DNA from: Eledone cirrhosa | Lineage: Eukaryota | Direction of reading: 5' to 3' | Assembly: GCA_964016885.1 (NCBI GenBank) | Contig: OZ024743.1 | Span: 259,160,001 to 259,224,000 of the forward strand | DNA: 64,000 nucleotides | Part shown: positions 5,528-60,541 of the stretch, in pieces | How positions within the stretch are numbered: position 1 is the stretch's first letter | Layout: each line of letters begins with the position of its first letter | Position numbers and translations under genes: made by a program | The notes under the pieces: generated by a model | What the model was told of the DNA's origin: nothing | Database searches by the model: none | The model's input: only the letters and a program-made list of their open reading frames with translations

Positions 5528-6870
5528 TATTTTCTTCATGCTCATAAATCTGGGCAAGATGGTTGATTACCTTTTTCATCTGTTGAAGATGTTGCTTCAG
5601 TGTTAGTATCCGGGTCTCGCGTGATGTTAATATGGATTTTAGACCCCGGGCGCCCTCCTTGCGTGCGAAGTATAGCCTATCCATATCATCATTGATGTTA
5701 AAGTTTCCAGTAACACTGAGAAGTTGCAAGTTCTTACATCCATCTCACTGAGTTCTTGCAATGACCAGTTCAGCAGACCAAATGTTGGCGTTAGGATTGG
5801 CACAGCATAAGTATTATGGCCAATGTATTTGTTATACGCTGATAGTTCTGATGACCGTATTTTCTTTACTCTCCTGAGTTATTCAGTTCGGGTTTTCTCC
5901 TTATCTATGGGTCCATCATATCTGACATTCTCATCTTGTCCAGGATATCTGTAGTTGTTACCTGACTGTAGAGGTTGTATTGTCAAGCCATTCATCTTTA
6001 GATTCCCACGTTTTACTGTTAAATATGCACATTTGGACTCACCAAATTTCATTCAGATGTATGCAGAAAATTGTGTAATGTGGTCCAATTGCTTTTTGAT
6101 ATAGTTGGTATTTGGCTCATACAACTTCAGGTCATCAACAAAGAAAAGATGGGAGATACTTCTGGACCCACTTCTATCGCAACTTTGCTTTGTGAGCAGA
6201 TATGATAGTGGATTTAGTGTGAGGACGAAAAGCAGCAATGAAAGATGCCTTTCTGTTAGTGTATTATATTAGCCTTAATTTGTGTATTATATTAGCCTTA
6301 ATTAGTGTATTATATTAGCCTTAATTAGCCTTCTCATCCCTAACGATCAAATTGGTGTACCAGTTCTTAGTGAGGCGTTTAACAGCAGCTAATAGTGGTT
6401 GCGGGACTTTGGCTAACTGTAAAGCCTTAATAATCCACCCATGAGGTACACTATCAAATGTCTTCTGATAGTCCAGCCACACCACAGGCATGTTCCTGCA
6501 ATTCTTTTTCCTGTATCATTTTATTTGTTAGTAGGTGATCTATGCTGCCCCCCACCTCTTTTCTACCAGCTTGCTCAGGCGTTATAATGTTGTTGGAGGC
6601 ACAATGATCCTGTAAGAACAGGTTAAGGCACCCAGTGTATCATTTATACATGATGTTCTGGCAGGCTATTGGGCGGTAATTTTAGCAAGGGTAGTTTGGC
6701 TATTTTGGGGGATGAGGAGAGTAGTGGAAGTTGATAACCATTGGGACAGTTCTTGTGTGCCTTTGATGGCTTCTCTAAACAGCCGTATGGGATCATGCTG
6801 ATAGAAGGTGAAATTCTTCAGTCAGTATCCTGTTATGAGGTCTATTTTCTGTAGAGCTGTTTCCAATATT
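5528..6870 (-). mobile_element. Decayed non-LTR retrotransposon RT fragment, R4/Dong-like
   Basis: Broken frames give LNPLSYLL..ISHLFFVDDLKLY and DRLYFARKEGARGL, motifs typical of R4/Dong-type RTs; many stops and frameshifts. Confidence 0.75.
6256..6330. repeat. 23-bp tandem repeat, about 3 copies, inside the RT fragment
   Basis: gtgtattatattagccttaatt at 6259, 6282 and 6305. Confidence 0.9.
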
Positions 6871-9069: not shown

Positions 9070-11075
9070 CATACTTACACACATACACATTCATACACAC
9101 ACACATATATATATATATACATATGCGTGTATGTGTATATATATAAACACATACACACTCAACATATCTAGTCTTCTTGAAAGTTAGGTCTCCAGTTTGG
9201 GAGGTACATTATGCCTCACTATATTCTGATGTATTAATTCGGGAGCCGGAATTAGGGATTCCAGTTGCACCTTACATTTTGGTACCTTGAGGAAATTTCA
9301 CAAAACGACTTCCGTTTTGCGAAATCAGCTCTAATTAATAGTCAACTATGTTGATAGTTTATTATCAATATTAGAGATATCTGTGTATTACATGTTGTAA
9401 GTCGTGTCTAATTGATGCACAAGGTCAGCAATTTTATTGGAGGGGAAATTCAATTATATCGATTCCAGTACTTGACTTGTATTTTATTTTATCGACCAAG
9501 AAAGGAGCAAAGGAGAAGTTGAGCACAGCGATTTAAACTGATCACATGCTATTAATACACCTATTTATTACTAAATCCTTTTATTTCAGTCTAAAGGCTA
9601 AGAGTGTACAGCACTAGTATCTAGGAAATATAAACATAAAACATAAAATGATCCGTTATTCAGCATTCAAGAAGTTTCATTCATAGAATTTTCTAGAGTG
9701 ATATATATCAGGGTGATCGATTAAATCTGATTGTACCTTTATTTGATTAATCTCGCTGCAAGTTCCAGAGGAATCTGTCGTCATGTTTATATTCAATATT
9801 CCATAGTAACTCTCTTCATTTATTTTAATATCCTGATAAAATCTTTTTCCATGTTTTTCACATAGATCACATACATTTTCATGGGGGTGATCAAAGTGAG
9901 TGCAGAATTAATGGACAGTGGTAGTCATTTTAGAACCAAACTTATTAACATTAAAGAACAGGTCCTTTACTGATTCAGCATAGTTATCTGTCTTATGGTT
10001 ACCCAAAATGTTTTGACAGCTAGAACAAAGTACATTACCATGTTACTTGATACATTGTCGCCAGTCCTATTCAACGTTCCGGACCTTAAACATAAATATT
10101 TTCTTCTCTGCTTTATTTGTTTTTGTGGCTGAAATAAATACATTGGATGGAAAGGGAATCAGTATAGAACTATGTCGAAAATATACATATAAACTGACGA
10201 TGAGATACTGGACAAATAATATTACAAACATCTTAGTACAAAATTTCTGATATTGCATTTGTTGTTAAAGAAACAAATGAATGTGCTATAATCGATTTCC
10301 TAAACATGGAGGGCACAATATTGAAAATTAAAACAAAAGCAAGAAACAACAAAAGCAAAACAACTACAAAAAACAGTGAATATAAAGTAACAAAATTCAA
10401 AAGAGAAACAACTTGAGATACGTAATCAGAACTTTGGGTTAAATAAAACTCTCAAGGATTTGAAGAAGGTCAAGTGTTATTCTCATTAGAGTCGGAACAG
10501 ATGGCTTTAAGCATAAAAAGGCTTCCATTCTACTTCAAACAACTTTAAATAAAACCAAACGTCACCATCATTAAAAAAATAATCTACACTGATTGGAACA
10601 GTTAATATGTTTAGAATGAACGTGGATTGGCAAGATCGATAGAGTGTCAGACAAAATACATGTGTAATATTAATATTTCATTAGGGCATTTCACGTTCTG
10701 ATTTCGAAATACTTCAAGTTTAACTGTGCTGTAAGCACTTTAACATCCTGTAATGATTTAGCAATATATATATATATATATATATAAAAACAAATAACGA
10801 AACGAAATCAAACTTCGTTTCGCTTCTAACTCACTTTTGTATGACTGACGCTTAAACAATTAAGTTAAAGTGTACATCTACATATGTATACGGAAGTATT
10901 AGTATGCATATAAATACACACATGTATACATATGTACATGTACTCAGCTTTTCACTAGACACTTTACAGTGAGTGTCAGCTAGTCTGTATGTAACCACAC
11001 AGGCGGACCGGGTTTTAGAGTCATACGAGTTTTCAAGGAAACACATTTCCTCTATTCTCCAGAGGGCCAGACAGG

Positions 11076-11120
11076 AATATTGGACTAGTTTCGATGTTAT
11101 TACATCTCATCAGCAATATT
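11076..11120 (-). ncRNA. Type I hammerhead ribozyme (family A, inverted arm)
   Basis: Exact reverse complement of 11274-11318. Confidence 0.9.
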
Positions 11121-11273
11121 TACCCATCTTCCGGCTTCTCTGGAGAATTGTAAAAGCACATATCGTTATATGCTTTTTCTATGCAAATTGGTCTACCCAC
11201 TACTAATTTTCATAGAAAAAGCATATAACGATATGTGCTTTTACAATTCTCCAGAGAAGCCGGAAGATGGGTA

Positions 11274-11318
11274 AATATTGCTGATGAGATGTAATAACAT
11301 CGAAACTAGTCCAATATT
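11274..11318 (+). ncRNA. Type I hammerhead ribozyme (family A)
   Basis: aatattg-CTGATGA-gatgt(aata)acatc-GAAA-ctagt-C-caatatt: 7-bp stem I, 5-bp stem II, palindromic ACTAGT stem III, GUC cleavage triplet. Confidence 0.92.
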
Positions 11319-11742
11319 CCTGTCTGGCCCTCTGGAGAATAGAGGAAATGTGTTTCCTTGAAAACTCGTATGACTCTAAAACCCGGTCCGCCTGTGTGGT
11401 TACATACAGACTAGCTGACACTCACTGTAAAGTGTCTAGTGAAAAGCTGAGTACATGTACATATGTATACATGTGTGTATTTATATGCATACTAATACTT
11501 CCGTATACATATGTAGATGTACACTTTAACTTAATTGTTTAAGCGTCAGTCATACAAAAGTGAGTTAGAAGGGAAACGAAGTTTGATTTCGTTTCGTTAT
11601 TTGTTTTTATCGTTTCCGCTGAACCGGTGCGTACAATGACTCACGTTCTATGCAAATTGGTCTACCCACTACTAATTTTCATAGAAAAAGCATATAACGA
11701 TATGTGCTTTTACAATTCTCCAGAGAAGCCGGAAGATGGGTA

Positions 11743-11787
11743 AATATTGCTGATGAGATGTAATAACATCGAAACTAGTCCAATATT
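11743..11787 (+). ncRNA. Type I hammerhead ribozyme (family A, second tandem copy)
   Basis: Identical to 11274-11318, exactly 469 nt downstream. Confidence 0.92.
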
Positions 11788-12005
11788 CCTGTCTGGCCCT
11801 CTGGAGAATAGAGGAAATGTGTTTCCTTGAAAACTCGTATGACTCTAAAACCCGGTCCGCCTGTGTGGTTACATACAGACTAGCTGACACTCACTGTAAA
11901 GTGTCTAGTGAAAAGCTGAGTACATGTACATATGTATACATGTGTGTATTTATATGCATACTAATACTTCCGTATACATATGTAGATGTACACTTTAACT
12001 TAATT

Positions 12006-12036
<31 letters not shown>

Positions 12037-12578
12037 CTATCTGAGTAACCCGTCGTTGCCAGGCAATAATCACATTTATTTCATTTTTTTAATTCCATGT
12101 CAGATATTATCTTCCCCTGGGTCGATTTATAATGTTTATATAAACAATGTTTCTGGTATTTTCCCATCTGGTGCATAGATGTAAAGATTTTTCTGACTTC
12201 CTACTCTTGAACAACCAGCGTAAAGCTGGCCATAAGTGAAGTAGGGCTTTTCAAAGTGTAAACCGGCAACCGAAAATGTTTGTCCTTGTGATTTATTGAT
12301 GGTCATGACAAAACTAAAACTGACTGGAAATTGAAGTCGTTTGAATTGAAATGAGACATCAATAGGGATAGGATGAATTCTTGGCATGAACATATCCTCT
12401 CCCCTACCATATCATCTTGAAATGGTGGCTTGAATCACGTGTGGATTCATATTTTTCACAAACAATCGAGTACCATTGCATAGCCTTGCTGGGGCGAAAT
12501 TCCTCAATAACATGATGGGTGCTCTTTTTTTAAGGTGAAAGACATGTGGAGGCATTATCGATGGTTCTAAAGAGTCTA
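12037..12578 (-). mobile_element. Helitron 3' fragment: PIF1-like helicase C-terminus and 3' terminus
   Basis: PIMLLRN..RLCNGTRL..FMPRI..FKRLQFPV..MTINKSQGQT..GQLYAGCSRV; ends in a GC hairpin (cctggcaacgacggg) followed by atagt, similar to CTAGt. Confidence 0.85.
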
Positions 12579-13409
12579 TAGCTTGATTGGGTACTCGCTG
12601 CCTTAACGCTACATCTGTTACTACATAATGGCATTGACAAAATTACTCAGAATAAGAGCAGAGAAGAAGAGTCTTTTCCGCAATACATATTAACAATATT
12701 AGTAATACGATAGGATAATTAATTACTGTTGTCCAAAACCACATATTTAAAGAAAGAGATGAGATTGTTTGAAACTCATTGCCCTTCAAGTATATATTGA
12801 AATGAGAAATAAAATTGCGTGCGTTGATGGTATAAAATGGCTGAGACTAACGGTTAATATGGAGCTCATTTCTTACTTTGTAGCGATTGCTAAGCCAGAA
12901 CATAATGCTTTGACTGTAATGAGGTCTGAGTAATACGGAGTAAAGTTGAAGCTAGCCACTGACTCAATCAGCTATCTGCGTTTGATACGTTTGGGAAGCC
13001 ATTTTGCTTTCACAGCTAATATTCTTGTAAAAACCGGGAACATCCAAATTTACGAAGAGATCAACCAAAATTAAACAACTGTTGCCGAAATATCAGGTAC
13101 TAGTCAAAATACGTTATTGACCGATTTGACCCGAAACGATTTCCTATTGATTAAGTTGCAGTTACTTCTAATGTGATAACATAATGATTAGTATATATAG
13201 AACATTTTATAGTGAAGTAGATAAAATATGAATATTTGATACTTCTAACCAAAACCTCTTTGTTGAAACCGTTCATTAAAACAGTCTATTCGGGCTGCAT
13301 TGAAATTTCTAAAAATAGTTATACTCTCAATAACTGTGAAATCACTGCAATCGAAAAGTTTCAGATTATGTTAGGCTACTGTAATTCTCAACAGTCCCAT
13401 ATCTAGAAT

Positions 13410-15020
13410 AAAGCTGATGTTTATTGATGTCAATATAAGGATATATCTACAGCTGACGTTTATTGATCAATCTAGTGACATATCTTCATCTGGTGTTTAT
13501 TGATGTCAATATAAGGATATATCTGCAGCTGACGTTTATTGATCAATCTAGTGACATTTCTTCATCTGTTGTTTATTGATGTCAACATAGCGACTTATAG
13601 ATGTCAACATAGCGACATATCTACAGCTGTTATAGATGTCAACATAGTGCCATATCAACAGCTGTTTATAGATGTAAACATAGCGACATATCTACAGTTG
13701 TTTATAGATGTCAACATAGCGACATATATCTACAGCTGTTATAGATGTCAACATAGCGACATATCTACAGTTGTTTATAGATGTCAACATAGCGACATAT
13801 CTACAGCTGTTATAGATGTCAACATAGCGACATATCTACAGTTGTTTATAGATGTCAACATAGCGACATATCTACAGTTGTTATAGATGTCAACATAGCG
13901 ACATATCTACAGCTGTTATAGATGTCAACATAGCGACATATCTACAGTTGTTTATAGATGTCAACATAGCGACATATCTACAGCTGTTGTAGATGTCAAC
14001 ATAGCGACATATCTACAGCTGTTATAGATGTCAACATAGCGACATATCTACAGTTGTTTATAGATGTCAACATAGCGACATATCTACAGCTGTTATAGAT
14101 GTCAACATACCGACATATCTACAGTTGTTTATAGATGTCAACATAGCGACATATCTACAGTTGTTTATAGATGTCAACATAGCGACATATCTACAGCTGT
14201 TATAGATGTCAACATAGCGACATATCTACAGCTGTTATAGATGTCAACATAGCGACATATCTACAGATGTTATAGATGTCAACATAGCGACATATCTACA
14301 GTTGTTTATAGATGTCAACATAGCGACATATCTACAGTTGTTTATAGATGTCAACGTAGCGACATATCTACAGTTGTTTATAGATGTCAACATAGCGACA
14401 TATCTACAGTTGTTTATAGATGTCAACATAGTGACATATCTACAGTTGTTTATAGATGTCAACGTAGCGACATATCTACAGTTGTTTATAGATGTCAACA
14501 TAGCGACATATCTACAGTTGTTTATAAATGTCAACATAGTGACATATCTACAGTTGTTTATAGATGTCAACGTAGCGACATATCTACAGCTGTTATAGAT
14601 GTCAACATAGCGACATATCTAAAGATGTTATAGATGTCAACATAGCGACATATCTACAGATGTTATAGATGTCAACATAGCGACATATCTACAGATGTTA
14701 TAGATGTCAACATAGCGACATATCTACAGATAATACCCATTCATGTCAATATAGCAACCTATCTGCAATGCAGATGATTAATGTGTATTGATGTCAATTA
14801 TAGTGACATATCTACAGCTGGTGTTTATTGATGTCCATATAGCGACATATTTACAGCTAATGTCCATTCATGTCTATATAAGGACATATCTACAGCTGAT
14901 GTTTATTGATGTCAATATAACGTCATATCTACGGTTGATGTCCAGGATGTCAATAAATCGATATATCTACAGCTGATGTTTATTGATGCCAATATAACGT
15001 CATATCTATAGTTGATAATC
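13410..15020. repeat. 35/36-bp minisatellite; homogeneous core about 13595-14730 with degenerate flanks
   Basis: Unit tagatgtcaacatagcgacatatctacag(ttgttta/ctgtta), about 30 copies with no spacers. Confidence 0.95.
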
Positions 15021-15099
15021 ATTAACGATTATTTCTTCAATGAATTGATTGATGTTTATTTGTTCGGGAAATTACCACTTTTTAATCATTAATTCCAAA

Positions 15100-15510
15100 A
15101 CATCGTAAAAGTACTGCTTTAATTAAGTCTGGTTTGAATCCCGGAATGTCCGGATTTAATTAAATATTTTAAATCACGGAATGTACTACTTTTAATAATG
15201 TGTAGTTTAAACTCTGAAATGTTCTGATTTAATTAAGTGTAGTTTAAAACATTGAAATTCAGATTTAATTAAGTGCAATTTAAAACATTGAATTTCTTAT
15301 TTAATTAATTGTAGTTTAAACAACGGAATACTTTGACTTAATTAGTTTTAGTTTAAACCACGGAATGTCCTGTTTTAATTAAGAGTATTTTAAACTGGAA
15401 AATGTCCTGCTTTAATTAAGTGTAGATTAAACCACGGAACGTCACTTTTTTTAATTTAATGCAGTTTAAACCACGGAATGTTCCGATTTAATTACGTGTA
15501 GTTTAAATGT
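15100..15510. repeat. Degenerate tandem repeat of about 37 bp
   Basis: Recurring ttaattaagtgtagtttaaaccacggaatgt variants. Confidence 0.8.
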
Positions 15511-16160: not shown

Positions 16161-16789
16161 CCTGCATTTATGACTGGAAATGATAAGTTTAACGAGGAGC
16201 AGAGTCTATGTCAGTCAGAATCTTATCTACCTAGAAATTGATCCATTATACTTGGATGAGTATCTAGCATGTTAGGCTAGCTTTGATTCATGCGCAACCT
16301 TCTCCTAATTATGCTCCCCATTTCCCCAAATAAAATAATTTCAGTTTACAGTTTGCCAAGCTGAAAAACCTAGCTTGTGATACTTCCGACCACACTAAAA
16401 AATTTACAAATCTTGCAGTTTCACTTTTAAGTCCACACTCATACCAAATCCTATGACATATCATAAGACTCTCTCCTCCGTTGATAGAGGTTCACGCTTT
16501 GATTACCTATTATCAATTATCATATATACCGAATCGGGTTTAGAAGATCAGCAAATTATTCTCTCCACCTTGCGAGGATGCACCTTTCTGAAGAGAGGAG
16601 AACCCCAGATGCACTCCTGATAGCACGTGTGGAGGAGGACTTATTATTACGAAGTCGGCGGATGATCTGCCTGAACACTTTATTTGCTGATCAGAAGTCG
16701 GATTCCAGCTTAAACCCAAAGTCCTCACATGTGTTACGTTTGCCCGCCTTTACTGTCTCTGCTGCGATTCTCATGCCTGGATCTCTGGA

Positions 16790-17760
16790 AAGGCAATGGC
16801 AATCGGGAGTGACAATTCCAAAGTTTAAAAAGGGAGACAAGAGATATTGCTTCAATTATAGAGGGATCGCCTTGTTAAGCCTCCCCGGTAAAGTCTACGC
16901 TAAGTGTCTGGCAAAACAATGTAGGGAGATTCTCGAGTCCAAGCTAGCTGATGAACAGAGTGGTATTCGCTCCGGACGCGGCACAGCCGACCAACTATTC
17001 ACAATGTGGTAGGTTTTTTGATAAATCGTGGAAGTATTGCGAAGATGTATATCCTTGCTTTGTAGACATTGAAAATGCTTATGACCTGCCGTGGAATGTT
17101 CTACAGGAGTATGGAATTGTACGTCAGTGTCATGTTGTCCTGATGTCTCTATATACGAATGTCCGAATATTTGTGTTCGGATAAATGGTGCTAAATCGAA
17201 ACCATTCAACGTGGGAGTCGGACTCCGTCTAAGTTGCGTACTATCACCTCTCCTCTTCATTATCTTTATGAACAGGATTGACATGCACAGCCGGATTGGA
17301 AGTGATATCACGACTAGCAAGTGTGGAATCAGTCGGCTAAAAATTGCAGATGACGTGGTATTACTAAACTCGACAGGTGATCTCCGACTTGCACTTGATG
17401 GATTTGATGCTGTGTACCGCATAGCTGGAAAGAAAATTAGTGCTGCGTAAACTGAGACACTCGTCCTCCCAAGGAAGCCTACGCAGTGCACTTTACATGT
17501 GAATGGAGTTCCACTGAAGCAGGCAGAGAAGTTTAAGTATCTTGGAGCCGTGTTCACGAGTGATGGAAGACAGAAGGCTGAATTAAGTTCAAGAATTGCA
17601 GGAGTTGGAGCAGTAATGCGCCAGCTTCAGCATTCAGTAATCAGAAGGGAGGTAGGTGTAAAAGACAAACTCGCTATCTTCAATTCGGTATTCGTGTCAG
17701 CTCTTCCCTATGGTCATAAAAATTGGGTAATAGCCGAACGAATACGATCGCGAATACAGT
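16790..17760 (+). mobile_element. Decayed RTE-clade LINE RT region
   Basis: FKKGDKRYCFNYRGIALLSLPGKVY..EQSGIRSGRGTADQLF..FVDIENAYD..GLRLSCVLSPLLF..ADDVVLL..FKYLG across three frames. Confidence 0.9.
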
Positions 17761-17763
17761 ACC

Positions 17764-19115
17764 CATCATCATCATCAGGTCGAGCTTACTCGGCTTTCTA
17801 CGACACGTTTCCTCCATCCATCTCTGTCTTTCATAGCGTTTGCCAGTTCTTCCGCAGTGCATCCAGTATCGTCTTCAAGTTGCATGACGTATGTCTTCTT
17901 GGGACGACCAGCGTTTCTTGCTCCATAACAACACATCACCTGCTATTTCTTCCTTGCTGCGCCAACAGTGGCCAGCAAATCTGAGTCTCTGTCCACGTAT
18001 TGACCTGCTGATAGGTGGTATATTGCCATAGAGATCCTTATTTGTTGGGTGTTCCCTCCAAGACACGTTTAAAGCAGCGCGGAGCATACGTGTGTATGCC
18101 CCGTCTAGCTTTTTCTCCAGTTCCGACGTTAGCGTCCAAGTGATAGAGCCATAAAGAAGCACAGATTCCACAGCAGCTCTGAAGAAATTCCTTTTCACTT
18201 TGGCCGGCAGGTTTGATTTCCATATCTTTTCCATTGCATTCGATGCTCCCCAGGCTTTTCCCAGTCTGATGTTAACATTATGTTCTGTGGAGGCGATACA
18301 GCTACCCAGGTATTTGAAGTCGTCAACTTGCTTGATTATATCGCCGTTTAGACTTCGCATACCAACTGAGGAGTCTTGGTTCAGGCAAATATATTCTGTT
18401 TTGCCTGCGTTGACATAGAGTCCGATTTCCTTTGCAACTGATTCGATGCTGTGAAGTAGTGATGTTGCATCCTTAAGGTAGTCAGCGAGGACCGCTAAAT
18501 CATCCGCATAGTCAGCATCGGTGATTTTCTGAGCTGCATAGCGTCTACATTTTCGCTTTGTGAGAGTGAACCCAAGCTCTACGTTTTCGTCCAGGGCTTT
18601 TCTCAATCCATAGTCGAGGCAGATGATAAAAATATATGGTACAAGAGTATCCCCTTGGAGTACTCCTGCAATGATGTCAAAGAAGTTGGTATCTCCATCA
18701 GGTGAGCGCACCATTGCGTGGGTATTTTTATATAACATCATGATGGCATTTACTGTTTCCTTTGGCAAGCCGTAGGCTAGAAGTATCTCTCTCATCCTCC
18801 AACGATGGATGGAATCGAATGCTTTTGAAAAGTCAATAAACAGGAGAGTTGCTGGGAGGTTTTTGACTATTACGCCTTCCAAGATACGCCGAATAGTAAG
18901 TATTTGCCCTGATGTTGATCTGTTGGTGCGGAAGCCATTTTTGTTTTTTCTCAGCAAGGGGTCAATGACAGGTCTAATTCTGTCAAAAAGCATGAGATTG
19001 TATATCTTTGCGGCAATTGCCATTAGAGTTATGCCACGGTAGTTTTTAGCCATTCCAAGATCGCCCTTTTTTTGAAAAGGGAGTATACATCCCTCAGTCC
19101 ATTTGTCTTTCAGGA
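17764..19115 (-). mobile_element. 5'-truncated RTE/RTEX-like LINE with largely open RT frame and (GAT)n tail
   Basis: KKGDLG..NYRGITL..GFRTNRST..FIDFSKAFDSI..GVLQGDTL..YADDL..FKYLGS; minus strand ends ...ctcgacctgatgatgatgatg, abutting the + strand LINE tail to tail. Confidence 0.92.
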
Positions 19116-19214
19116 CACACTGAAATGAATGTTTGAGGACTCTGCCCCCACGACCATCAAGGGAATAAGTAGGTGAAGAAGAATATAAGAAGATAGATAC
19201 CGAAATATGTATGA

Positions 19215-19259
<45 letters not shown>

Positions 19260-19266
19260 CGCCCCC

Positions 19267-19302
<36 letters not shown>

Positions 19303-19629
19303 GAAAAATTCGGGACCCCGACGGCTGAGCTCCGTTCGGATCTAGCTGTCGAAACGGCCGGAGCTCAGCCGTTGGGGTCCTGAATCTTTTCATATAACCC
19401 ACTCTACTACCCCAAGTATCGAGTACTCTGGTGCGTTATGGTCCACCTGGTACCTTACCACACCCTCTTTGTTATATATATAAAGTATATTTGTGTGAAT
19501 GTGCGTGTATGCAGACACATGTATAGACACATAACTTCACAGAGTTATACACACAAAATATCGAGAAAACCAAAGAATAAAGAGATCATTGAAATAGATA
19601 GCAGTATGTTATATATTTATCTTACATAT

Positions 19630-20660: not shown

Positions 20661-21599
20661 AAGAGATATTTATTTAATAATGTCTCATAAAATAATACAA
20701 CCAGCTATCCACGCAATACTGATTAGTTGGCACCCTAAACACTAAATTGGGATAATACTTAGGTATATCCTAATGTTTGTTGAGTGAGATGGAGTTGGTC
20801 AGAGTATCGCTTAAGGCTTTCTCTGTTTATGTATTGAATATATACTCTTGGTGGCCTGATATGATTTCCAGATATAAGGTATGATTCTCTTTATTATTAT
20901 TATATTTTATATGAAATACTGATTGATCTTCCTTGTATCCCATGTCTGATTTAGCCTTATAGAATGGCTATGTGTGTATATGGGTGATCCATACATGTAT
21001 TTATTATGTTTTAATATCTCTGTGTGTGCATTGGTTGTGTATACATATGGTTATTCTTTTAATATGCAATTGAGTTCTTATACACGTGGTTAATACCTAA
21101 CAGGTTTAAATGACCAGCGTGTATATTGTTTTATTTTAAGATGACCTCCCTTTACCCTTTTGGGGACAGCGTGTATTTTATCTTTGAGAGGACTGCTGGA
21201 TTTTCTAATCTACCAGTCTTTTCTTAGCGCTGAGGGAGACCATCACCATTCTATTAATGTCGATATAATTCTTATATCGATATTATTTGAGCATCCACTG
21301 ATGAGTTTATAAGAGGCGGCTTGTGTATAAAACTATGAATTATATACAAGTTTCTACATAACCTGGAAATTATTTATCCCAAATTGTAGAAATCTTATAA
21401 CGAAACGGCCGTCTGGAAGGAAAGAGATATTTATTTAATAATGTCTCATATAAAATAATACAACCAACTATCCACGAAATACTGATTAGTTAGCACCCCA
21501 AACACTAAATTGGGAGAATACTTAGGTATATCCTAATGTTTGTTGAGTGAGATGGAGCTGGTCGGAGTATCGCTTAAGGCTTTCTCTGTTTATGTATTG
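20661..21599 (+). mobile_element. Non-coding hammerhead-bearing element, family B: 761-nt unit with about 177-nt terminal redundancy
   Basis: 20661-20836 repeated at 21422-21599; TA-rich flanks; no ORF. Confidence 0.85.
21294..21417 (+). ncRNA. Type I hammerhead ribozyme with long branched stem II (family B)
   Basis: tcca-CTGATGA-gtttataaga[...]tcttataac-GAAA-cggccgt-C-tgga; palindromic stem III ACGGCCGT; GUC triplet. Confidence 0.8.
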
Positions 21600-22599: not shown

Positions 22600-22815
22600 A
22601 TCGATCGACTTACGTCAAATCGGACCGAGGAAACAATGTTTCCGTTGGTCTTTCTAATTGGTGATATGCTCTATCGGTCGCAACTCCAGGTAGAAGGAGC
22701 AACGTGAAATAAAGTGTCTTGCCCAAGGACACAACGCATCACTCGGCCCGGGAATCGAACTCACAACCTCACGATTGCGAATCTAATTCTCTAACCACTC
22801 AGCCACGTGCCTTCA
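22600..22815 (-). mobile_element. SINE family 2, tRNA head plus CORE-like domain (+ copies at about 23900-24038, 24310-24860, 25220-25570, 35615-35828)
   Basis: gcgtggctgagtggttag A-box, gagttcgattcc B-box, gtgtccttgggcaagacactttatttcac CORE-like segment. Confidence 0.85.
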
Positions 22816-22841
22816 CATATGTATGTATTTATGTATGTATG

Positions 22842-22926
<85 letters not shown>

Positions 22927-22928
<2 letters not shown>

Positions 22929-23624
22929 GCTAGCAAATATATAGGTTTTATCTTAATAACAGTGTGGTTCAATGCATATATTATTGTTCTGCAACCCCAT
23001 GCATTGAACCACACTGTTATTAAGACAAAACCTATATATTTGCTAGCATTGATATGCATATGTATGTATATATGTTACTAGATATGAATTCTTTATTATT
23101 ATCTCCAAATTATTTGTCGAGCAATATTGGCCATGACTGCTGCTACGGTTGTAGGCAGGCCGCCAGGCCGCTGTCTTATTAGCAAACCACTTTCCACTGA
23201 TTGACCTCGATGTCACGTGTTCGATTCTTTTTGAATTTGCCACAGACGTAGAGGCAGTGATTTTCTCAATGGCTTGGAATTCAGTCCACGCTTCGCTATT
23301 TCCTATCCACTGAATTATTTTTTAATAAGTTTCCAGTGTCCTCGCTTTGCCTGGAAACTTACATGAGAATAGACTTTCCTGACGACGGAATGCTTCTCGA
23401 TATTATTCTTCGGAAAATATATTTACTCCATTCCAGAAACTAATTAGTTGGAAGTGATATTTTAGTAAGTAAGTTAATTTTATAATTTTCTTATTTTACG
23501 TCTCTTATATTATTGTTCTGCAACCCCATGCATTGAACCACACTGTTATTAAGACAAAACCTATATATTTGCTAGCATTGATATGCATCTGTATGTATAT
23601 ATATGTTACTAGATATGAATTCTT

Positions 23625-23630
<6 letters not shown>
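22927..23630 (+). mobile_element. Non-coding hammerhead-bearing element, family C: 5' fold-back plus about 1.2 monomers of 529 nt
   Basis: 22981-23099 repeated at 23510-23630; 22927-22977 is an inverted copy of the start; TA-rich flanks. Confidence 0.85.
23373..23455 (+). ncRNA. Type I hammerhead ribozyme with extended stem II (family C)
   Basis: actttc-CTGACGA-cggaatg[...]cattcca-GAAA-ctaattagt-T-ggaagt. Confidence 0.75.
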
Positions 23631-23678
<48 letters not shown>

Positions 23679-23887: not shown

Positions 23888-24046
23888 ACACACATATGTG
23901 AAGCGTGGCTAAGTGGTTAGAGAATTAGATTCGCAATCGTGGGATTGTGAGTTCGATTCCCGGGCCGAGTGATGCGTTGTGTCCTTGGGCAAGACACTTT
24001 ATTTCACGTTGCTCCTTCTACCTGGAGTTGCGACCGATATGACAAG

Positions 24047-24579: not shown

Positions 24580-24790
24580 CAGGGTGGGCCAGAATTCATG
24601 ACTCATGGTTAATCAAATTTAGAAAAAAAACAAAAACTTGTGAGGCGTATTAAGAAATAAAAATATAAATTAAGAAACCTGCTAAGCATATTAAGAAATA
24701 AAATAATAAATTAAAACAATACAATAATAATAAAATAAGCCTGTTACGATATACAACTAACAAGCGAGTCATGAATTCTGGCCCACCCTG
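24580..24790. mobile_element. Tc1/mariner-type MITE, 211 bp, inserted in a SINE
   Basis: Perfect 25-bp TIRs cagggtgggccagaattcatgactc / gagtcatgaattctggcccaccctg with TA on both sides. Confidence 0.92.
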
Positions 24791-26031: not shown

Positions 26032-26119
<88 letters not shown>

Positions 26120-26122
<3 letters not shown>

Positions 26123-26635
26123 TAACTTTGTGGTTCAATGCAAGGGGATGCAGAACAATTATATGGAAGACGTAAAATAAGAAAATTCTTTATAATTATA
26201 AAAATTATAAAATTATAAAAATTCTTTATAATTATCTCCAAATTATTTTGTTGAGCAAAAATTTGCCAAAACTGCTACTATAGTTCATAGTAATAGTTCG
26301 GCTACTGTCTTCGTAACACCCCACTCCTCACTGATTAACCTCGATGTCACGTGATTGATTCCTTTGAATTTGCCACCGACCAAGTAGGCAGTGATTTTTT
26401 CAATGTCTTAAAATTTAGTCCTCGCTTGGTTTTTACCATCCACTAAATTATTTTTGTATAAGTTCCCTGTGTCCACGCATCGCCTGGGAACTTAGCTGAG
26501 AATTGACTTCCTGATGACGAAAGGTATTCTCCATGTTGCTCCATTCGGAAACCATGTTTATTCCCTTTCAGAAACTAATTAGTTGGAGTGAAATTTTAGT
26601 AAGTAAGTTAATTTTTATAATTTTCTTATTTTACG

Positions 26636-26640
<5 letters not shown>
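26120..26640 (+). mobile_element. Family C second, diverged copy with 5' inverted segment
   Basis: 26220-26638 aligns with 23088-23503; 26120-26188 is the reverse complement of the family's downstream sequence; (TA)n on both sides. Confidence 0.85.
26506..26589 (+). ncRNA. Type I hammerhead ribozyme (family C, copy 2)
   Basis: acttc-CTGATGA-cgaaagg[...]cctttca-GAAA-ctaattagt-T-ggagt; stem II covaries with copy 1. Confidence 0.78.
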
Positions 26641-26732
<92 letters not shown>

Positions 26733-30709: not shown

Positions 30710-33217
<2,508 letters not shown>

Positions 33218-37224: not shown

Positions 37225-38565
37225 TCATGTGTGAGAGACTTCTTTCATTTCAATATTTTGCAAGTCGGGTTTTTCAAGCTTTTCTTCGCTGGAGTCATCT
37301 AAGTTCGATGACGTCAACATTGATCTAAGGCTTGGGCTATCTATAGACACATGAGATATACAATGTGAATGTTCACTCGGTTTAGAAACGTCACTGGCGA
37401 TATCAGAGTTATTTTCACTAATATTTGAATTATCATGAATACCACTCTGGCTGCTGTGAGGTTGAGGAGAATTCGAACAACCAGAGCATACTGTGTTCAC
37501 CGAAGGACGACGACTATCTGGTGCATCGACTTGATGTACTGAAGCCATGTGAACGATAACAACAGGTAGGCTATCATTGGAATCTCCTTCACTCATCGGT
37601 CTGTTCGGATGAACGCAAAGATATTGCGTATTAGGTGTAACGTTCTCAGCAGTTTCATCGACCCGCAATTCATCATCTTGTTCATAAGCGGGATTTATAA
37701 TGCCAGTTGACACACTACATACACTACTCGATACTACCGAGGCCCTCCGCATAGCATCACTACTTCGTGTCAATCTGAAGTCATCAAAGGCAACATTATT
37801 TGATTTTCGTCTCGTATAAGAAACATGTGATAGAAAAGCTGACGATAGCGCATTATGAAACGGTTTGATGTTTGGCATTGAATATGCTTTATTGGCTATT
37901 TCTGAACTTTTAATAGGATGCGTTACCATCGAACTACGACGAGATGAGGCTGGGAAAGTTATTTTATAGGCTGTTTCTTTCACTCCACTACTTTCTCTTA
38001 AATTTGTGCACACATTTGAATCGGAACTGCTTGTCAGTTCATTTGAGTTAATGCTTTTTACTGCCATTTGTTGGAAAGGCAGTTGTATTCCACGAAAATA
38101 ATTTTTTCTAAAGCTCTCTACCACCAACTCATAAATGGCTTCTTTTTTTAAACTACGAATCCGGATTTCGTCTTCAACCCTTAAATATTTGTCCCTAAAT
38201 TCACAATACATTACACAGGAAACTATTACCATAAAAGCTCCCATAGCCATAATTGGAGGTCCGACATACGCTAACACTTTTAAGTGGATATTTCGAGGTG
38301 GTTCCGGTGGTTTCACTGGTAATCGAATACTTTGAGATAAAATAGATGATTCCGGGTAATATCCTAAGATGCTCATTGCTATTCCACCGACTGATATCAA
38401 CGAGCCAATAAGTGTACCGATCAATGTTGGCAAAAGGCAAGGGATGTTTATAAAATCTGCAATTTTAAAAGGCCGGCGTACTTTTCGTTTCGGTCTTCGG
38501 CGTCTAGAACTGAATACAGGATGGTCAGTATCATTATAATGAAGCCGTACGCGAGGGACGAACAT
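37225..38565 (-). CDS. TMEM200: TMEM200-family (DUF2371-like) two-pass membrane protein, 446 aa, single coding exon
   Basis: Long non-repetitive ORF. Basic N-terminal stretch (RRRRPKRKVRR), TM1 ending GIAMSILGYYP and TM2 LAYVGPPIMAMGAFMVIVSCVMYCEFRDK resemble the TMEM200 motifs GIAMAVLGYWP and GPLIMGIGIF..C...HENRDK. A long Ser-rich tail follows. Confidence 0.85.
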   Translation of the reverse strand: MFVPRVRLHYNDTDHPVFSSRRRRPKRKVRRPFKIADFINIPCLLPTLIGTLIGSLISVGGIAMSILGYYPESSILSQSIRLPVKPPEPPRNIHLKVLAYVGPPIMAMGAFMVIVSCVMYCEFRDKYLRVEDEIRIRSLKKEAIYELVVESFRKNYFRGIQLPFQQMAVKSINSNELTSSSDSNVCTNLRESSGVKETAYKITFPASSRRSSMVTHPIKSSEIANKAYSMPNIKPFHNALSSAFLSHVSYTRRKSNNVAFDDFRLTRSSDAMRRASVVSSSVCSVSTGIINPAYEQDDELRVDETAENVTPNTQYLCVHPNRPMSEGDSNDSLPVVIVHMASVHQVDAPDSRRPSVNTVCSGCSNSPQPHSSQSGIHDNSNISENNSDIASDVSKPSEHSHCISHVSIDSPSLRSMLTSSNLDDSSEEKLEKPDLQNIEMKEVSHT

Positions 38566-50392: not shown

Positions 50393-51009
50393 AACATAAA
50401 TTATCGAGAATCGCATTTCGGCCCACGAAATAACGAAAAACAACCTCCGAGATGTGTGGCAAGTGCTCAATGATTCAGATGAACCAGAGCTATAACAAAC
50501 GTTAAAGGCCAAACACACTGAGACGATGGTTAAACAATCATTTGCATAGCCAAAAATACGATCAAGTAATTCGGGTCAAACAAATAAAAAATATCTGTGA
50601 TTATATATATATATAAAAGGAAAACAGATGAAATCGAAAATGCAACTGGAGTTTTTTTCAGAATATTTATTTGGCTCCTTTACCGGTTTCGCAGTTCTTA
50701 TGCTTTTCAAAAGTAGAATTGAGATGGAGGGTTTGTGGTTTTTCTCGTATCTGGTTGGTGTTTGAATTTTACTTCTGTTTTATGTGGAAAAAGGTGGTTC
50801 GAAATGCTAGGTTTTTTTAGAAGAGTAATTTGGTTGGTTGATGACTGTCACGTGAATAAGTATAATAACTTTCGCGCCAGTTCGCGTTACAAAGTTCTAA
50901 TATTTGCTTTAAAAAAGAGGGGGGGGGGACTCAGATTGTTTTTTTATATATGAGTGAAATTTGGTTGGTTGATGTAGTCACGTGAATAAGCACATAAACT
51001 TTCGCGCCA

Positions 51010-51266
51010 AAGGATGCAATGAAGATTATATAGGACAAACTAAACTCACACTCAGAAACAGAATGACAATTCATCGCCAACAATTACGAGACCCTACCAC
51101 AAGACAGATACCATTCAATGCACATCTAGAGATATGCGCAAGCGATAAGACACCCAAATTTCAAGTCTTTCCACTTTATTTTTGCGCTGAACAAATACGA
51201 ATAAATACGAATAAATAAGGAAAATATGTTTATTCAAAAATATAGACCAGCATTAAATATAGTTTA
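51010..51266 (+). pseudogene. PLE GIY-YIG endonuclease C-terminal fragment (frameshifted)
   Basis: GCNEDYIGQTKLTLRNRMTIHRQQ..AHLEIC..then KENMFIQKYRPALN* in another frame. Confidence 0.88.
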
Positions 51267-51473
51267 ATATACATTATGTCAACACCATAACATGCTAACC
51301 ATCCAAACATACACATACATACACACACACATAACACCTTCTATATTCGAAAATAAAAACCAGAGCTAAATAAACCTTCACATACATTAATACTCTAACA
51401 CCTTAACATGCTAACCATACCTCCCCCCACACACATAACTCCCTTCACCATTTCTACTAACGGAATCATTTTC

Positions 51474-51512
<39 letters not shown>

Positions 51513-52236
51513 TATATATTCTCTCCATCTTAACATGCTAACCATACTCCCACACACACATATAACACCCATAGACACACACACACATAACTCGCTCCCC
51601 CATTTCTACTAATAGAATCATTTTCCTACACACACACACACACACCAGCACAAAAATAAAAATACATATCTCTACTTTCTTTATTTCAATAGAAAGTCTG
51701 AATTTTGACACACCAGCACATCAGCCATACTCACTGAACCAGAACAATTCTCCTCCATCCCTTTTTTCTTGACCATTATCTTTTGTGTGGCACAACATTC
51801 TCTAAATGGGTACAAAAAAATTCCCAAATACGGGCGCAAAATTTAATGTACTTATTCACGTGACAGTCATAACCAATTATATTACATTTATAAAAAAAAG
51901 CTTTTTGAGCCACTTTTTAAGTGAAAAGAAATTCAAACACAAACTGGCACGAAAGCTGATGTGCTTATTCACGTGACTACATCAACCAACCAAATTTCAC
52001 TCATATGTGAAAAAACAATATGAGCCCCCTCCCCCCCTTTTTAAAAGGCAGATATAATAAGAATTTTGTAACACGAACTGGCGCGAAATTTATTATACTT
52101 ATTCACATGACAGTCATCAACCAACCAAATTACTTCTCTAAAAACCTAGCATTTCGAGCAACATTTTTCCACATAAAACAAGTAACATTCGAACACCAAC
52201 CAGATGAGAGAAAAACCGCAAACCCTCCATCTCAAT

Positions 52237-52272
52237 TTTTTGAAAAGCATAAGAACTGCGAAACCGGTAAAG
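52237..52272 (+). ncRNA. Minimal hammerhead variant with U3-A8 core (family F; also 50678-50713 - and 53989-54024 +)
   Basis: (c/t)tt-TTGAAAA-gca(taagaac)tgc-GAAA-ccggt-A-aag; palindromic ACCGGT stem III; lies in the pseudo-LTR. Confidence 0.7.
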
Positions 52273-52515
52273 GGACCAAATAAATATTCTTAAAACACTC
52301 CAGCTGCATTTTCGATTTCATCTTTTTTTCTTATACTTTCACTGGTCTAGGACATCTCGTCTTTTTTCATTTTGGAAAAAAAACCTCATTTTCTAATATC
52401 TTTCTGCTATATCAAGCGTTAACCCAATATATACCTTCCATATACTGTACCGATTGTGTTGTTATTTCTGTTTGCCTTTTACATACAGACACACACACAC
52501 ATATATATATATATA

Positions 52516-53506: not shown

Positions 53507-53511
<5 letters not shown>

Positions 53512-53935
53512 TAAACGGAATAGAAAATGCTGACAAATTGTTCGCAGTGAAAAATAGTTTAATTAGGAATAAGTGAGAATTAGTAATACTATTGGTTAGT
53601 ATTCAGTTTTGGTTTTAAGTTTTGCCGGTTGCGCATTTCTAATGCTTTTCAAAAATAATTTTGAGATAGAGCGTCCGTGATGTTTGCTCTGAGAAAACAT
53701 CACTGAGCAAAGATCAGAGCAAACATCACGGACGCTCTATCTCAAAATTATTTTTGAAAAGCATAAGAAATGCGCAAGCGGTAAAATAAAAACCAAAACT
53801 GAATACTAACCAATACTATTACTAATTCTCACTTATTCCTAATTAAACTATTTTTCACTGTGAACAATTTGTCAGCATTTTCTATTCCGTTTACCAATAT
53901 ATCATAACTTGTGTGTTACACCTCTATTCTTTTAA
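53507..53935 (+). mobile_element. Fold-back element with arms of about 185 bp and a degenerate U3-A8 hammerhead
   Basis: 53507-53692 is inverted at 53714-53900; ttTTGAAAAgcat(aagaa)atgcGCAAgcggta; (TA)n flanks. Confidence 0.75.
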
Positions 53936-54155
53936 ATATATATATATGTGTGCGTGAGAAAAACCACAGACCCTCCATCTCAACTCTACTTTTGAAAAGC
54001 AGAAGGACTGCGAAACCGGTAAAGGAACCAAATAAATATATATATTTTTTTAAAAATAAGACTCCAGTTGTATTTTCGATTTCAACTTTTTTTCTTTATA
54101 CTTTCACTCGTGTAGGACACCTCGGTTATTTTTCATTTTGTAAAAAAAACCTCAC

Positions 54156-54195
<40 letters not shown>

Positions 54196-54199
<4 letters not shown>

Positions 54200-54610
54200 C
54201 AGGTAAAAGGATGATTAACACGGATAAGTAATATAATAGCGAGGGCGATATAATAGGGTTTTATTCCTAGCATTAACATATGTTTCATCGCCTAATAAGC
54301 AATTAATTATGTCTTGAAATCACTATCGTCAATTTTTGATTGGCTATTTAAATACACTGCATTGTTTTGTGTATTTAAAATCGAATTTCACATTAGCCAA
54401 TCAATTATTGACGATAGCAATTTCATGACATAATTAATTGCTTATAGGGCGATGAAATATTTCAAGACATAATTAATTACTTATTAGGCGATGAAACATA
54501 TGTTAATACTTGGAATAAAACCCTATTATATCGCTTATCCGTGTTAATCCTTCTTTTACCAGTTATTAACATCAGGAATCTACCCTCCGAAAAACCTAAC
54601 TAAGTAAGCA
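54196..54610 (+). mobile_element. Fold-back element with internal duplication, probable PLE 3' end
   Basis: 54196-54346 is inverted within 54394-54566; duplicated gacataattaatt..gcgatgaaa; (TA)n flanks. Confidence 0.7.
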
Positions 54611-55859: not shown

Positions 55860-56750
55860 GAAACGAATGAGTCGGATCAAGTAGCTCCAAGAAACAGCGA
55901 TTAGTGTAGTATCTGTTTAGAGGCAAGTAGAGGAGGTGACACTGGATCAAGTAGCTTCAGTGAACAGGCATCAGTTTGGTATCTGTTAAGAGGCAGGGAG
56001 AGGACATGACATTGGATCGCGTAGCTCCAAGAAACAGGGATCTATGTGGTATCTGTTAAGAGGCAAGTAGAGGAGGTGACACTGGATCAAGTAGCTTCAG
56101 TGAGCAGGCATCAGTTTGGTATCTGTTAAGAGGCAGGGAGAGGACATGACATTGGATCGCGTAGCTCCAAGAAACAGGGATCTATGTGGTATCTGTTAAG
56201 AGGCAAGTAGAGGAGGTGACACTGGATCAAGTAGCTTCAGTGAGCAGGCATCAGTTTGGTATCTGTTAAGAGGCAGGGAGAGGACATGACATTGGATCGC
56301 GTAGCTCCAAGAAACAGGGATCTATGTGGTATCTGTTAAGAGGCAAGTAGAGGAGGTGACACTGGATCAAGTAGCTTCAGTGAGCAGGCATCAGTTTGGT
56401 ATCTGTTAAGAGGCAGGGAGAGGACATGACATTGGATCGCGTAGCTCCAAGAAACAGGGATCTATGTGGTATCTGTTAAGAGGCAAGTAGAGGAGGTGAC
56501 ACTGGATCAAGTAGCTTCAGTGAGCAGGCATCAGTTTGGTATCTGTTAAGAGGCAGGGAGAGGACATGACATTGGATCGCGTAGCTCCAAGAAACAGGGA
56601 TCTATGTGGTATCTGTTAAGAGGCAAGTAGAGGAGGTGACACTGGATCAAGTAGCTTCAGTGAGCAGGCATCAGTTTGGTATCTGTTAAGAGGCAAGGCG
56701 AGGAGGTGACACTGGATCACGTAGCTCCAAGAAGCAGGGATCAGTTTGAT
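55860..56750. repeat. 120-bp higher-order minisatellite made of two related 60-bp subunits, about 6.5 units
   Basis: Sequence recurs exactly every 120 nt; subunits share tggtatctgttaagaggca..gagga..tgaca.tggatc..gtagct. Confidence 0.95.
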
Positions 56751-56913
56751 ATCGGTTGGAGAGACTAGGATAGACTAGGATAGACAACCCATCCGTGGAG
56801 CAGAATGTGCAATGTATTTTTGAGTGATTTCATGTCAATCAGTTTAATTATTACCAGAAAAATGAGACAATAAATGTTTATCCTAATTGTTTCAATATTT
56901 GACATAAGATTTT

Positions 56914-58642: not shown

Positions 58643-58685
58643 GTCACTGAAGAGGTCACAGCATGTGTGACGAAAGAACTTTGAC
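58643..58685 (+). ncRNA. Minimal hammerhead-like motif
   Basis: gtca-CTGAAGA-g-gtcaca(gcatg)tgtgac-GAAA-gaact-T-tgac, lying between (TA)n tracts. Confidence 0.7.
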
Positions 58686-59547: not shown

Positions 59548-60133
59548 CCGTTTATTTTTGAGAATCGGAACCGAATCGGTAAAGGTAACCATAGTAAGTA
59601 CAGTTAATTTTTTAAAATTTATTTTGAAACTTTATCTTATTTGCTAAACCTTGATTATATATGTTCTGGCTCGTTAATTTATTAACCTGCCATCGAACCA
59701 CATTGGCATACGTTTGGACAATACATGTGTCCCTTAGCGCCTGTGCGTGTAGGAACACATATCCTATTATTACTACTCTCCTCTATGTTGAGAAAATTTG
59801 GTCGTTCTGACTGCTGCTAGTTATAGCAGTAGCCATTTGACCTCCCTGCCTCTGCCTTTATCTTTACACTCGGCCCTTGAAAAAATTGATTCCACTTCAT
59901 TTACTCTCATCTCGGGAACAATTTTGAATAGCCCCAGTTCGTAATTTGAATTCGAGAATTTTATATTCTCCGAATGAAAAGATCCTTCTGACGAGATTCT
60001 TTCTTTGCAACGAAGGCCGTATGGACTCCGTTTATTTTTGAGAATCGAAACCGAATCGGTAAAGGTAACCATAGTAAGTACAGTTAATTTTTAAAAATTT
60101 ATTTTGAAACTTTATCTTATTTGCTAAACCTTG

Positions 60134-60140
<7 letters not shown>
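59548..60140 (+). mobile_element. Non-coding hammerhead-bearing element, family D: 480-nt unit with about 113-nt terminal redundancy
   Basis: 59548-59660 repeated at 60028-60140, then (TA)n. Confidence 0.85.
59984..60065 (+). ncRNA. Type I hammerhead ribozyme with extended loop II (family D)
   Basis: cctt-CTGACGA-gattctt[...]gagaatc-GAAA-ccgaatcggt-A-aagg. Confidence 0.85.
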
Positions 60141-60173
<33 letters not shown>

Positions 60174-60494
60174 AATATGTTGAGAAGGTAACACACCAGA
60201 GAGAGATATATAATGCGTTATCAATAATACAGGGAAAAAACCACCAGTGTATGGAATCTATAACCTATGAAAGGCAGACTATATTTTTAATTATCGTGTC
60301 TATAGTCTGCCTTTCATAGGTTATAGATTCCATACACTGGTGGTTTTTTCCCTGTATTATTGATAACGCACTATATATCTCTCTCTGGTGTGTTACCTTC
60401 TCAACATATTACATTTTAAAGGGCTCAGGATCTCTTCCCCTTTGAGCACATTATTTACAGGGAATAACGACGGCTTATGCCTCCGTTAATTTAT

Positions 60495-60541
<47 letters not shown>

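Follow-up and report, generated by a model that had tools for sequence, protein, structure and literature searches.

A short non-coding repeat family with a predicted hammerhead ribozyme as a probable non-autonomous Penelope-like element in an octopod genome

A repeat family with a 529-nt unit, here called family C, was characterised in a 64-kb window of Eledone cirrhosa, the window being the whole stretch of DNA analysed. Family C is very probably a non-autonomous Penelope-like element moved in trans, the circular permutation of its copies being a pseudo-LTR produced by internal priming on a template of more than one unit. Two copies were identified, both carrying a hammerhead motif and an inverted 5' arm, two features absent from the original prediction on this locus. 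A third copy was not found in the window by either blastn or nhmmer, the next nhmmer matches (E 0.097 and 0.44) being collinear on a 480-nt element described below.

Structure of the two insertions

Copy 1 (22927-23630) comprises an inverted 5' arm and 1.23 laps of the non-coding unit, set within (TA)n (Table 1). Its direct repeats are 97.6% identical over 125 columns (blastn, E 2e-56), or separated by one substitution and a 2-nt TA indel when 124 columns are compared, and define a period of 529 nt (531 counting the extra TA) with a GC content of 0.36. At 23100 the upstream repeat passes into the unit start, whereas the downstream one gives way to (TA)25, as stated in the original prediction, which had the family reading through its own end into its start at about 23100, stopping in (TA)n at 23630 and containing no ORF. 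The forward run of copy 2 aligns with 23087-23505 of copy 1 at 79.7% identity over 428 columns. This run had been predicted to start at the same junction, at about 26220; the coordinate is right, but it corresponds to 23087 on copy 1, so that copy 2 begins 13 nt upstream of the join and crosses it. At the join 12 of 13 bases match the end block of copy 1, with a chance probability of about 1e-5 that rises to 9e-4 once 4 nt of microhomology are excluded. Because copy 2 crosses the same join as copy 1, the closed unit is a family trait; this crossing is the sole independent sign that the head-to-tail join is family-wide, and position 23100 marks only the place to which the 3' end of copy 1 maps, with no intrinsic start or end of the unit. 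Copy 2 stops at 26639, about 125 nt before the end point of copy 1, and lacks +104 to +166 (counted downstream of the predicted ribozyme cut), hence the 529-nt length is read from copy 1.

An inverted 5'-truncated piece lies beside the 5' end in both copies, that of copy 1 differing by one substitution from both forward copies, and TA-rich microsatellite occupies all four flanks without clear target-site duplication. The original prediction had opposed a circular or multimeric template to an ordinary pseudo-LTR, an opposition that falls away, since a partial tandem with an inverted 5' piece is the standard layout of a Penelope pseudo-LTR (PMC8557442, PMC2377424). The standard anatomy described for Penelope-like elements combines a partial tandem, an adjacent inverted 5'-truncated copy, a 30-40-bp tail at one end and microsatellite targets (PMC8557442).

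Table 1 Coordinates of family C features in the window. Signed positions are distances downstream of the predicted ribozyme cut
Feature	Position	Strand	Description
Copy 1 left flank	22817-22926		(TATG)n/(TA)n/(CATA)n microsatellite target; no discernible target-site duplication
Copy 1 inverted 5' arm	22927-22977	-	Antisense of 23528-23578, +79 to +129
Copy 1 upstream direct repeat (pseudo-LTR piece)	22977-23099	+	+57 to +179 on the unit
Single-copy rest of 529-nt unit	23100-23505	+	Non-coding; more stable than shuffles (z -3.1), a non-specific property
Hairpin	23130-23157	+	Kept in copy 2 despite lowest local identity (15/30 columns)
Conserved block, 25 nt	23195-23219	+	24/25 identical in copy 2; candidate promoter element
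Copy 1 hammerhead motif	23366-23463	+	Core 23379, GAAA 23436, triplet GUU, predicted cut after 23449
T-rich block	23463-23500	+	Most conserved block of the family; splice-donor-like hexamers (23465, 23469)
Copy 1 downstream direct repeat	23506-23630	+	3' end at about +180; final bases in common with the (TA)n target
Copy 1 right flank	23628-23678		(TA)25
Copy 2 left flank	26034-26119		(TA)43
Copy 2 inverted 5' arm	26119-26187	-	Matches 23484-23552, +35 to +103
Copy 2 turn	26184-26232		Five short pieces, alternating forward- and inverted-strand template, 4-nt microhomology joints
Copy 2 forward part	26220-26639	+	Begins 13 nt upstream of the join and stops at +55
Copy 2 hammerhead motif	26499-26597	+	Core 26511, GAAA 26571, predicted cut after 26584
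Copy 2 right flank	26641-26712		(TA)36

The hammerhead motif

The motif found in both copies appears to be a type I hammerhead of the Penelope type, for which cleavage is predicted. In copy 1, stem II comprises 6 bp with a 36-nt insert, its G10.1-C11.1 pair having an unpaired C on one side and an unpaired A on the other, and stem I has 6+6 bp; in both copies stem III is a 12-nt palindrome and the triplet is GUU. The traits listed for Penelope hammerheads are a long helix II, an extra base between 9 and 10.1, G10.1-C11.1 and a palindromic helix III (PMC4209133), all four of which are present in family C. Its own peculiarities are an unpaired A between C11.1 and G12, the stem II insert of 36-39 nt and the GUU site, and our literature search returned no description of this core variant. 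GUU is a weaker triplet for hammerhead cleavage.

A descriptor composed after the motif had been spotted by eye returned seven sites in the window, compared to a mean of 0.01 per window in 100 block-shuffled windows. Two of these are the family C copies, six of the seven lie within repeated elements and the site at 60664 looks like chance. Across both copies 48 of 48 scored cells are paired (37-51% in slid controls), with 4 of 25 pairs changed on both sides and none broken, a covariation that rests on two copies and is equalled by 33 of 500 shuffles, the floor being about 1 in 16 for four varying pairs in two rows. Stem I of copy 2 has in addition lost one base from each strand, a paired deletion. 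On stretches of 98-99 nt, the hammerhead fold of copy 1 comes within 0.1 kcal/mol of the unconstrained minimum and that of copy 2 within 1.4 kcal/mol; widening the stretch to 117-131 nt gives energies no lower than those of shuffles (z +1.3 to -0.9). Two motifs are predicted to pair through their stem III palindromes in a duplex of 12 bp. A longer stem III, running to a GUA farther downstream, was considered as an alternative and dropped, as it left the first stem I pair unpaired; this competing pairing is strong in copy 2 only. Rfam yielded no match in the window at gathering score, and the 71 matches between 22900 and 26750 at E up to 10 included no ribozyme, consisting mostly of miRNA models on hairpins and microsatellites that were dismissed as chance.

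The type and position of the ribozyme bear on whether the direct repeats around the 406-nt middle are instead the 123-nt LTRs of an LTR-type miniature, or whether the family is a foldback DNA transposon, a miRNA-like hairpin or a Helitron-type element, readings to which a 5' hairpin with weak similarity to miRNA models (far under gathering scores) and a Pif1 helicase fragment in the window could be attached. We regard this group as highly improbable, given that the repeats lack TG...CA ends and vary in extent between copies, that the ribozyme is of type I and lies outside the repeat, that the inverted arms are unlike between copies, and that the G-U pairs of stem I are preserved on the + strand in both copies. 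The fixed LTRs with a type III ribozyme and a target-site duplication that define an LTR retrozyme are likewise absent from family C.

Coding capacity and conserved elements

Read as a circle, the unit has a longest ATG ORF of 42 aa on the + strand and 27 aa on the - strand, and the linear copies contain none above 44 aa. No Pfam domain was detected in family C among 150 of the window's 272 stop-free frames of at least 55 aa, the other 122, mostly microsatellite-rich or overlapping, having been omitted by choice. A tblastn search with 150 Penelope-related proteins, 11 of which are at least 500 aa long, gave only noise (best E 0.012) on a circular unit 2 nt short at the join, and ARAGORN reported 0 genes. 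Hence the RT and GIY-YIG ORF of an autonomous Penelope-like element was not seen in family C, nor did ORF scan, Pfam or tblastn reveal the linear extension into a coding element that, according to the original prediction, would make the redundancy an ordinary pseudo-LTR.

These searches also inform the possibility that the copies are merely 5'-truncated 3' ends of a coding Penelope inserted in tandem by chance, with no short family involved. Truncation at the 5' end and tandem insertion are frequent in the Penelope-like class, and a truncated coding Penelope does occur in the window at 50616-52400. We nevertheless consider this improbable, as the same join is present in two copies 20% apart, no (TA)n scar marks it, and neither the 150 related proteins nor Pfam uncovered a coding remnant.

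Several parts of the unit are conserved. A hairpin resembling that at 23130-23157 is found at 59800-59845 of the 480-nt element, and the octamer ending the 25-nt conserved block recurs in the pseudo-LTR of a GIY-YIG Penelope fragment described below. We take this octamer to be E-box-like. In a stretch picked after inspection, which covers the 3' half of the ribozyme and continues up to 23500, 65 of 69 columns are identical compared with 272 of 353 upstream (Fisher p 5e-4). The T-rich block within it, which recurs directly 3' of the ribozyme in the 480-nt element, is a candidate RT recognition site or retained intron start. Splice-donor-like hexamers lie 10-20 nt past the cut in family C and the 480-nt element (23465, 23469, 26599, 26603, 59594 and 60074), representing 6 of the 15 of their kind on the + strand of the window, and possibly mark a retained intron start. 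The forward bodies of the two copies fold at z -3.1 and -3.6, a stability that is non-specific since 2 of 26 control stretches also fall below z -3. A consensus fold of the two copies shows double changes in 10 of 99 pairs, the structure having been fitted to these same two sequences.

Breakpoints and the nature of the template

Mapping of ends on a circular unit, put forward with the original prediction, was possible for the two window copies, and all eight breakpoints fall between +35 and +180 downstream of the predicted cut, with ends that differ between the copies. Copy 1 starts at +57 and ends at about +180, with its arm spanning +79 to +129, while copy 2 starts at +167 and ends at +55, its arm spanning +35 to +103. 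That both forward starts lie within +1 to +180 has a chance probability of 0.12 and is weak evidence. Neither copy ends at the cut, and each retains an intact hammerhead, about 180 nt from the 3' end in copy 1 and 55 nt from it in copy 2. An intact ribozyme inside the 3' end, together with a crossed join, implies a template longer than one unit, of which about 650 nt were used in copy 1 and about 550 nt in copy 2. A single cut-to-cut linear monomer copied once cannot yield both copies, so that either a circle or a tandem transcript is needed. The predicted circular or multimeric non-coding template therefore holds as regards its more-than-unit length; circularity itself would not be required, a tandem fitting too.

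The outer ends are offset by about 50 nt in copy 1 (right longer) and 41-48 nt in copy 2 (left longer), lengths near that of the 30-40-bp tail, but at differing unit positions. In the lizard element the Penelope protein is reported to cut both strands of AT-rich DNA and to prime internally 3' of the hammerhead, using two sites that lie a tail length from each other (PMC11167929), which by our own arithmetic from that report places priming about 85-92 nt past the cut and again one tail length away. The family C end pattern, including its 40-50-nt outer offset, appears to fit such internal priming. The arm of copy 2 extends about 45 nt past that copy's own forward 3' end, so it was not copied from the present forward part and its source would be RNA or since-lost sequence, which would fit priming from both target strands. 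The arm differs by 2 nt from the copy's own 3' end, which a two-unit template and priming at +55 explain equally.

A linear multimer, that is, an uncleaved or once-cleaved tandem transcript of a donor with at least two units, or an RT jump between two RNAs, makes a circle unnecessary, and we give it a nearly even chance of being correct. Both copies fit a template running from one cut site and primed in the second unit, their 5' limits all lying at +35 or beyond; the 761-nt element described below begins 9 nt past its own cut; and a sister family has a two-ribozyme tandem donor at 11177-12008, although a two-ribozyme family C donor is absent from the window. In vitro, unprocessed linear RNA is described as the main substrate of the lizard Penelope (PMC11167929). 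A ligated circle, in which a tandem precursor is cut, the 529-nt monomer closed into circular RNA and the RT runs for more than one lap, as suggested both for retrozymes and for the renewal of Penelope pseudo-LTRs, is possible rather than probable, the ribozyme lending it plausibility. Neither copy has a seam at the cut site, and the template used exceeded one lap; repeats within an insertion are nearly identical (1 substitution in 124 columns, and 0 in 363 for the 469-nt element) against 20% divergence between copies; and in the 480-nt and 469-nt elements the insertion extends back across a second cut site. Folded as a circle, the unit attains z -3.7, a value that 0 of 40 shuffles reach, but stable folding is non-specific (2 of 26 control stretches below z -3). 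Circular RNAs have been demonstrated for coral, mussel and axolotl retrozymes (PMC7229834), and the circle model has been put forward in the literature (PMC4209133). On the other hand, a tandem donor accounts for the same layout, hammerhead mutants of the lizard element are reported to insert normally in vitro with 0 RNA-seq reads ending at the cut (PMC11167929), and 8 of 9 Xenopus dimers are reported not to cleave in vitro (bioRxiv 10.64898/2026.07.22.740005). The two copies do not separate a tandem transcript or template jump from a ligated circle.

Related elements and genomic context

Three other hammerhead-bearing short units are present in the window, with periods of 469, 480 and 761 nt. 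The 469-nt-period element (10787-12008, in (TA)n) has forward hammerheads at 11281 and 11750 and an inverted one at 11113, together with an inverted arm about 400 nt long and a repeat of 363 nt whose two copies show 0 differences; it is young and the best candidate in the window for a test of cleavage or circle formation. The 480-nt-period element (59548-60137) has a hammerhead at 59988, shares the hairpin and the post-ribozyme block with family C, and starts at its 5' end inside the upstream ribozyme, 33 nt before the cut; two weak collinear nhmmer matches suggest that it is a distant relative of family C. The 761-nt-period element (20661-21599) has a hammerhead at 21298-21413 with a stem II region of about 95 nt, and its forward start lies 9 nt past the cut site. 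The 3' ends of all six insertions tabulated lie +54 to +228 past the cut. It was noticed post hoc that 20661-21599, 22977-23630 and 59548-60137 each cover 1.23 units, the fourth element covering 1.77, a coincidence possibly due to chance.

Penelope coding sequence is represented by a 5'-truncated element of the Neptune/Nematis type at 50616-52400, with an inverted arm, a GIY-YIG end at about 51009-51250 (Pfam E 0.0026) and U3-A8-type hammerhead-like motifs at 52240 and 50710(-). Related motifs were also seen at 53754 and 53992 within 53509-54170. A word-index homology search with the GIY-YIG fragment found no match, and a full scan returned 361 relatives at E up to 0.001. Nine long relatives were scanned by Pfam, of which six contain RT and GIY-YIG, two GIY-YIG only and one no Pfam match, and a CX2-5CxxC linker is present in all nine relatives of at least 600 aa. 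This linker is described as marking Neptune and Nematis (PMC8557442 and its preprint). Judged by its sequence, the fragment shows that Penelope machinery has been in the genome, though not as the identified partner of family C: this sole coding Penelope fragment of the window has no blastn similarity to the family (best E 0.045). A lone hammerhead-like core at 58647-58685, with a 6-bp stem II and a poor stem III, lies outside the repeats seen by self-comparison, and further elements in (TA)n that are palindromic or have an inverted arm, and in which no hammerhead was detected (30796-32532, 32712-33133, 60168-60498 and 54199-54563), are possibly related retroelement ends.

The window as a whole is animal DNA dense in microsatellites and SINEs. 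Two SINE-like copies, 22672-22807 and 23904-24039, are inverted around copy 1 and agree at 133 of 136 positions, while their agreement with a third member (35620) drops to 121-124 of 137. A possible origin is gene conversion, or else an inverted duplication at the locus. At 24580-24790 a short MITE-like element was identified by eye; it is flanked by TA, and its terminal inverted repeats measure about 25 nt. A reverse-transcriptase ORF and fragments, all of LINE type, and a Pif1 helicase 2B domain are distributed over 17878-19341 (-), 16503-17447 (+), 6324-6515 (-) and 12415-12642 (-), the helicase domain suggesting a Helitron remnant. A 446-aa ORF with a DUF2371 domain (37228-38565, -), which we take to be TMEM200-like, is most similar, among named relatives, to proteins of Argonauta (87%) and a cuttlefish (65%), pointing to an octopod host. 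Minisatellite arrays occur at 13412-15507 (36/71-nt periods) and 55874-56757 (70/140-nt periods).

Relationship to retrozymes and Penelope-like elements

Animal non-LTR retrozymes, described as tandem hammerhead units (Cervera and de la Pena 2020, PMC7229834), resemble family C in their short non-coding unit, type I hammerhead, GC content below 45% (36% in family C) and head-to-tail continuity, as well as in having Penelope-like elements of the same genome as the likely motor. A 2026 preprint (Li, Clavereau and Pollet, bioRxiv 10.64898/2026.07.22.740005) proposes that vertebrate retrozymes derive from Penelope pseudo-LTRs; its main text covers 31 vertebrates, 3 insects and 1 anthozoan, and 529 nt falls inside its 51-972 bp range. 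The differences are that retrozymes have two or more units in succession with complete ribozymes, found here in the sister 469-nt element, whereas each family C insertion in the window has one ribozyme in about 1.0-1.2 units, and that the canonical hammerhead, whose helices are short and whose loops 1 and 2 are in contact, is replaced by the Penelope minimal type with a stem II of 6 bp plus a 36-39-nt insert. Family C further has inverted 5' arms and (TA)n targets. It may function like a non-LTR retrozyme, and is classified here as a non-autonomous Penelope-like element because it lacks two retrozyme features in this window, namely tandem ribozyme units and a canonical ribozyme.

Endonuclease-positive (EN+) Penelope elements of the Neptune/Nematis type (Craig et al. 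2021, PMC8557442; Cervera and de la Pena 2014, PMC4209133) share with family C, as far as they are described there, the partial tandem pseudo-LTR, the adjacent inverted 5'-truncated copy, a possibly tail-like end offset, a hammerhead near the 3' end and microsatellite targets without clear duplication; family C differs in lacking an RT-endonuclease ORF, in its size (0.53 kb compared to about 3 kb), and in the extra A before G12 and the GUU site of its ribozyme. Short non-autonomous Penelope-like elements have been reported from Chlamydomonas (MRC1; PMC8557442) and Heliconius (PMC6685494), and are similarly non-coding, with pseudo-LTRs, head-to-tail insertions and reliance on an autonomous family. 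Their similarity to an autonomous 3' end is known, while a partner of family C was looked for within the window, where none matched, and most Chlamys elements are described as lacking canonical hammerheads (PMC8557442) whereas family C has a predicted one of the Penelope type. Poseidon PAc of Anolis (Frangieh et al. 2024, PMC11167929) is comparable in its internal priming 3' of a retained hammerhead, AT-rich targets and cutting and extension of both strands, but is coding with a ribozyme that overlaps the ORF start, and family C has no ORF remnant after the ribozyme. In cephalopods, we found no description of such elements beyond the 235 hammerhead hits counted in the giant squid genome paper (PMC6962438), among the papers listed by a literature search that lay outside Repbase, Dfam and most subscription papers.

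A model for pseudo-LTR renewal

Under the reading of family C as a trans-mobilised Penelope-like element, the unit would have the parts of a pseudo-LTR: a candidate promoter, structured RNA, a minimal type I hammerhead and a conserved T-rich block. A donor with more than one unit would be transcribed, and a Neptune/Nematis-type RT-endonuclease acting in trans would bind the RNA just 3' of the ribozyme. The enzyme would nick both (TA)n strands and prime internally at short matches rich in UA, 55-180 nt past the cut site. The long forward copy would come from one target strand and the short inverted arm from the other, the two being joined by microhomology. As template, a tandem transcript left uncleaved is slightly favoured over a circle cut by the ribozyme and ligated. 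Internal priming combined with a template running past one unit would leave each insertion circularly permuted and with a fresh terminal repeat.

The basic layout is already known and the surprise to a specialist modest, yet the renewal of Penelope pseudo-LTRs and the role of the hammerhead are named as open questions (PMC2377424, PMC8557442). Family C joins a retrozyme-like unit and Penelope insertion anatomy in the same copies, and at least four short non-coding families whose units complete more than one lap in ordinary insertions occur within one 64-kb window. So many short natural insertions make the question of circle versus tandem transcript testable for Penelope pseudo-LTRs. More tentatively, and with some doubt, we suggest that octopod genomes may harbour several ribozyme-bearing RNA families of 470-760 nt that exist as true circles, are missed by Rfam on account of long stem II inserts and are copied by Penelope enzymes with internal priming, the dispersed insertions of 1.0-1.8 laps being records of rolling reverse transcription. 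If this proposed and as yet unproven scenario is correct, the insertions would be a direct genomic record of how Penelope pseudo-LTRs renew.
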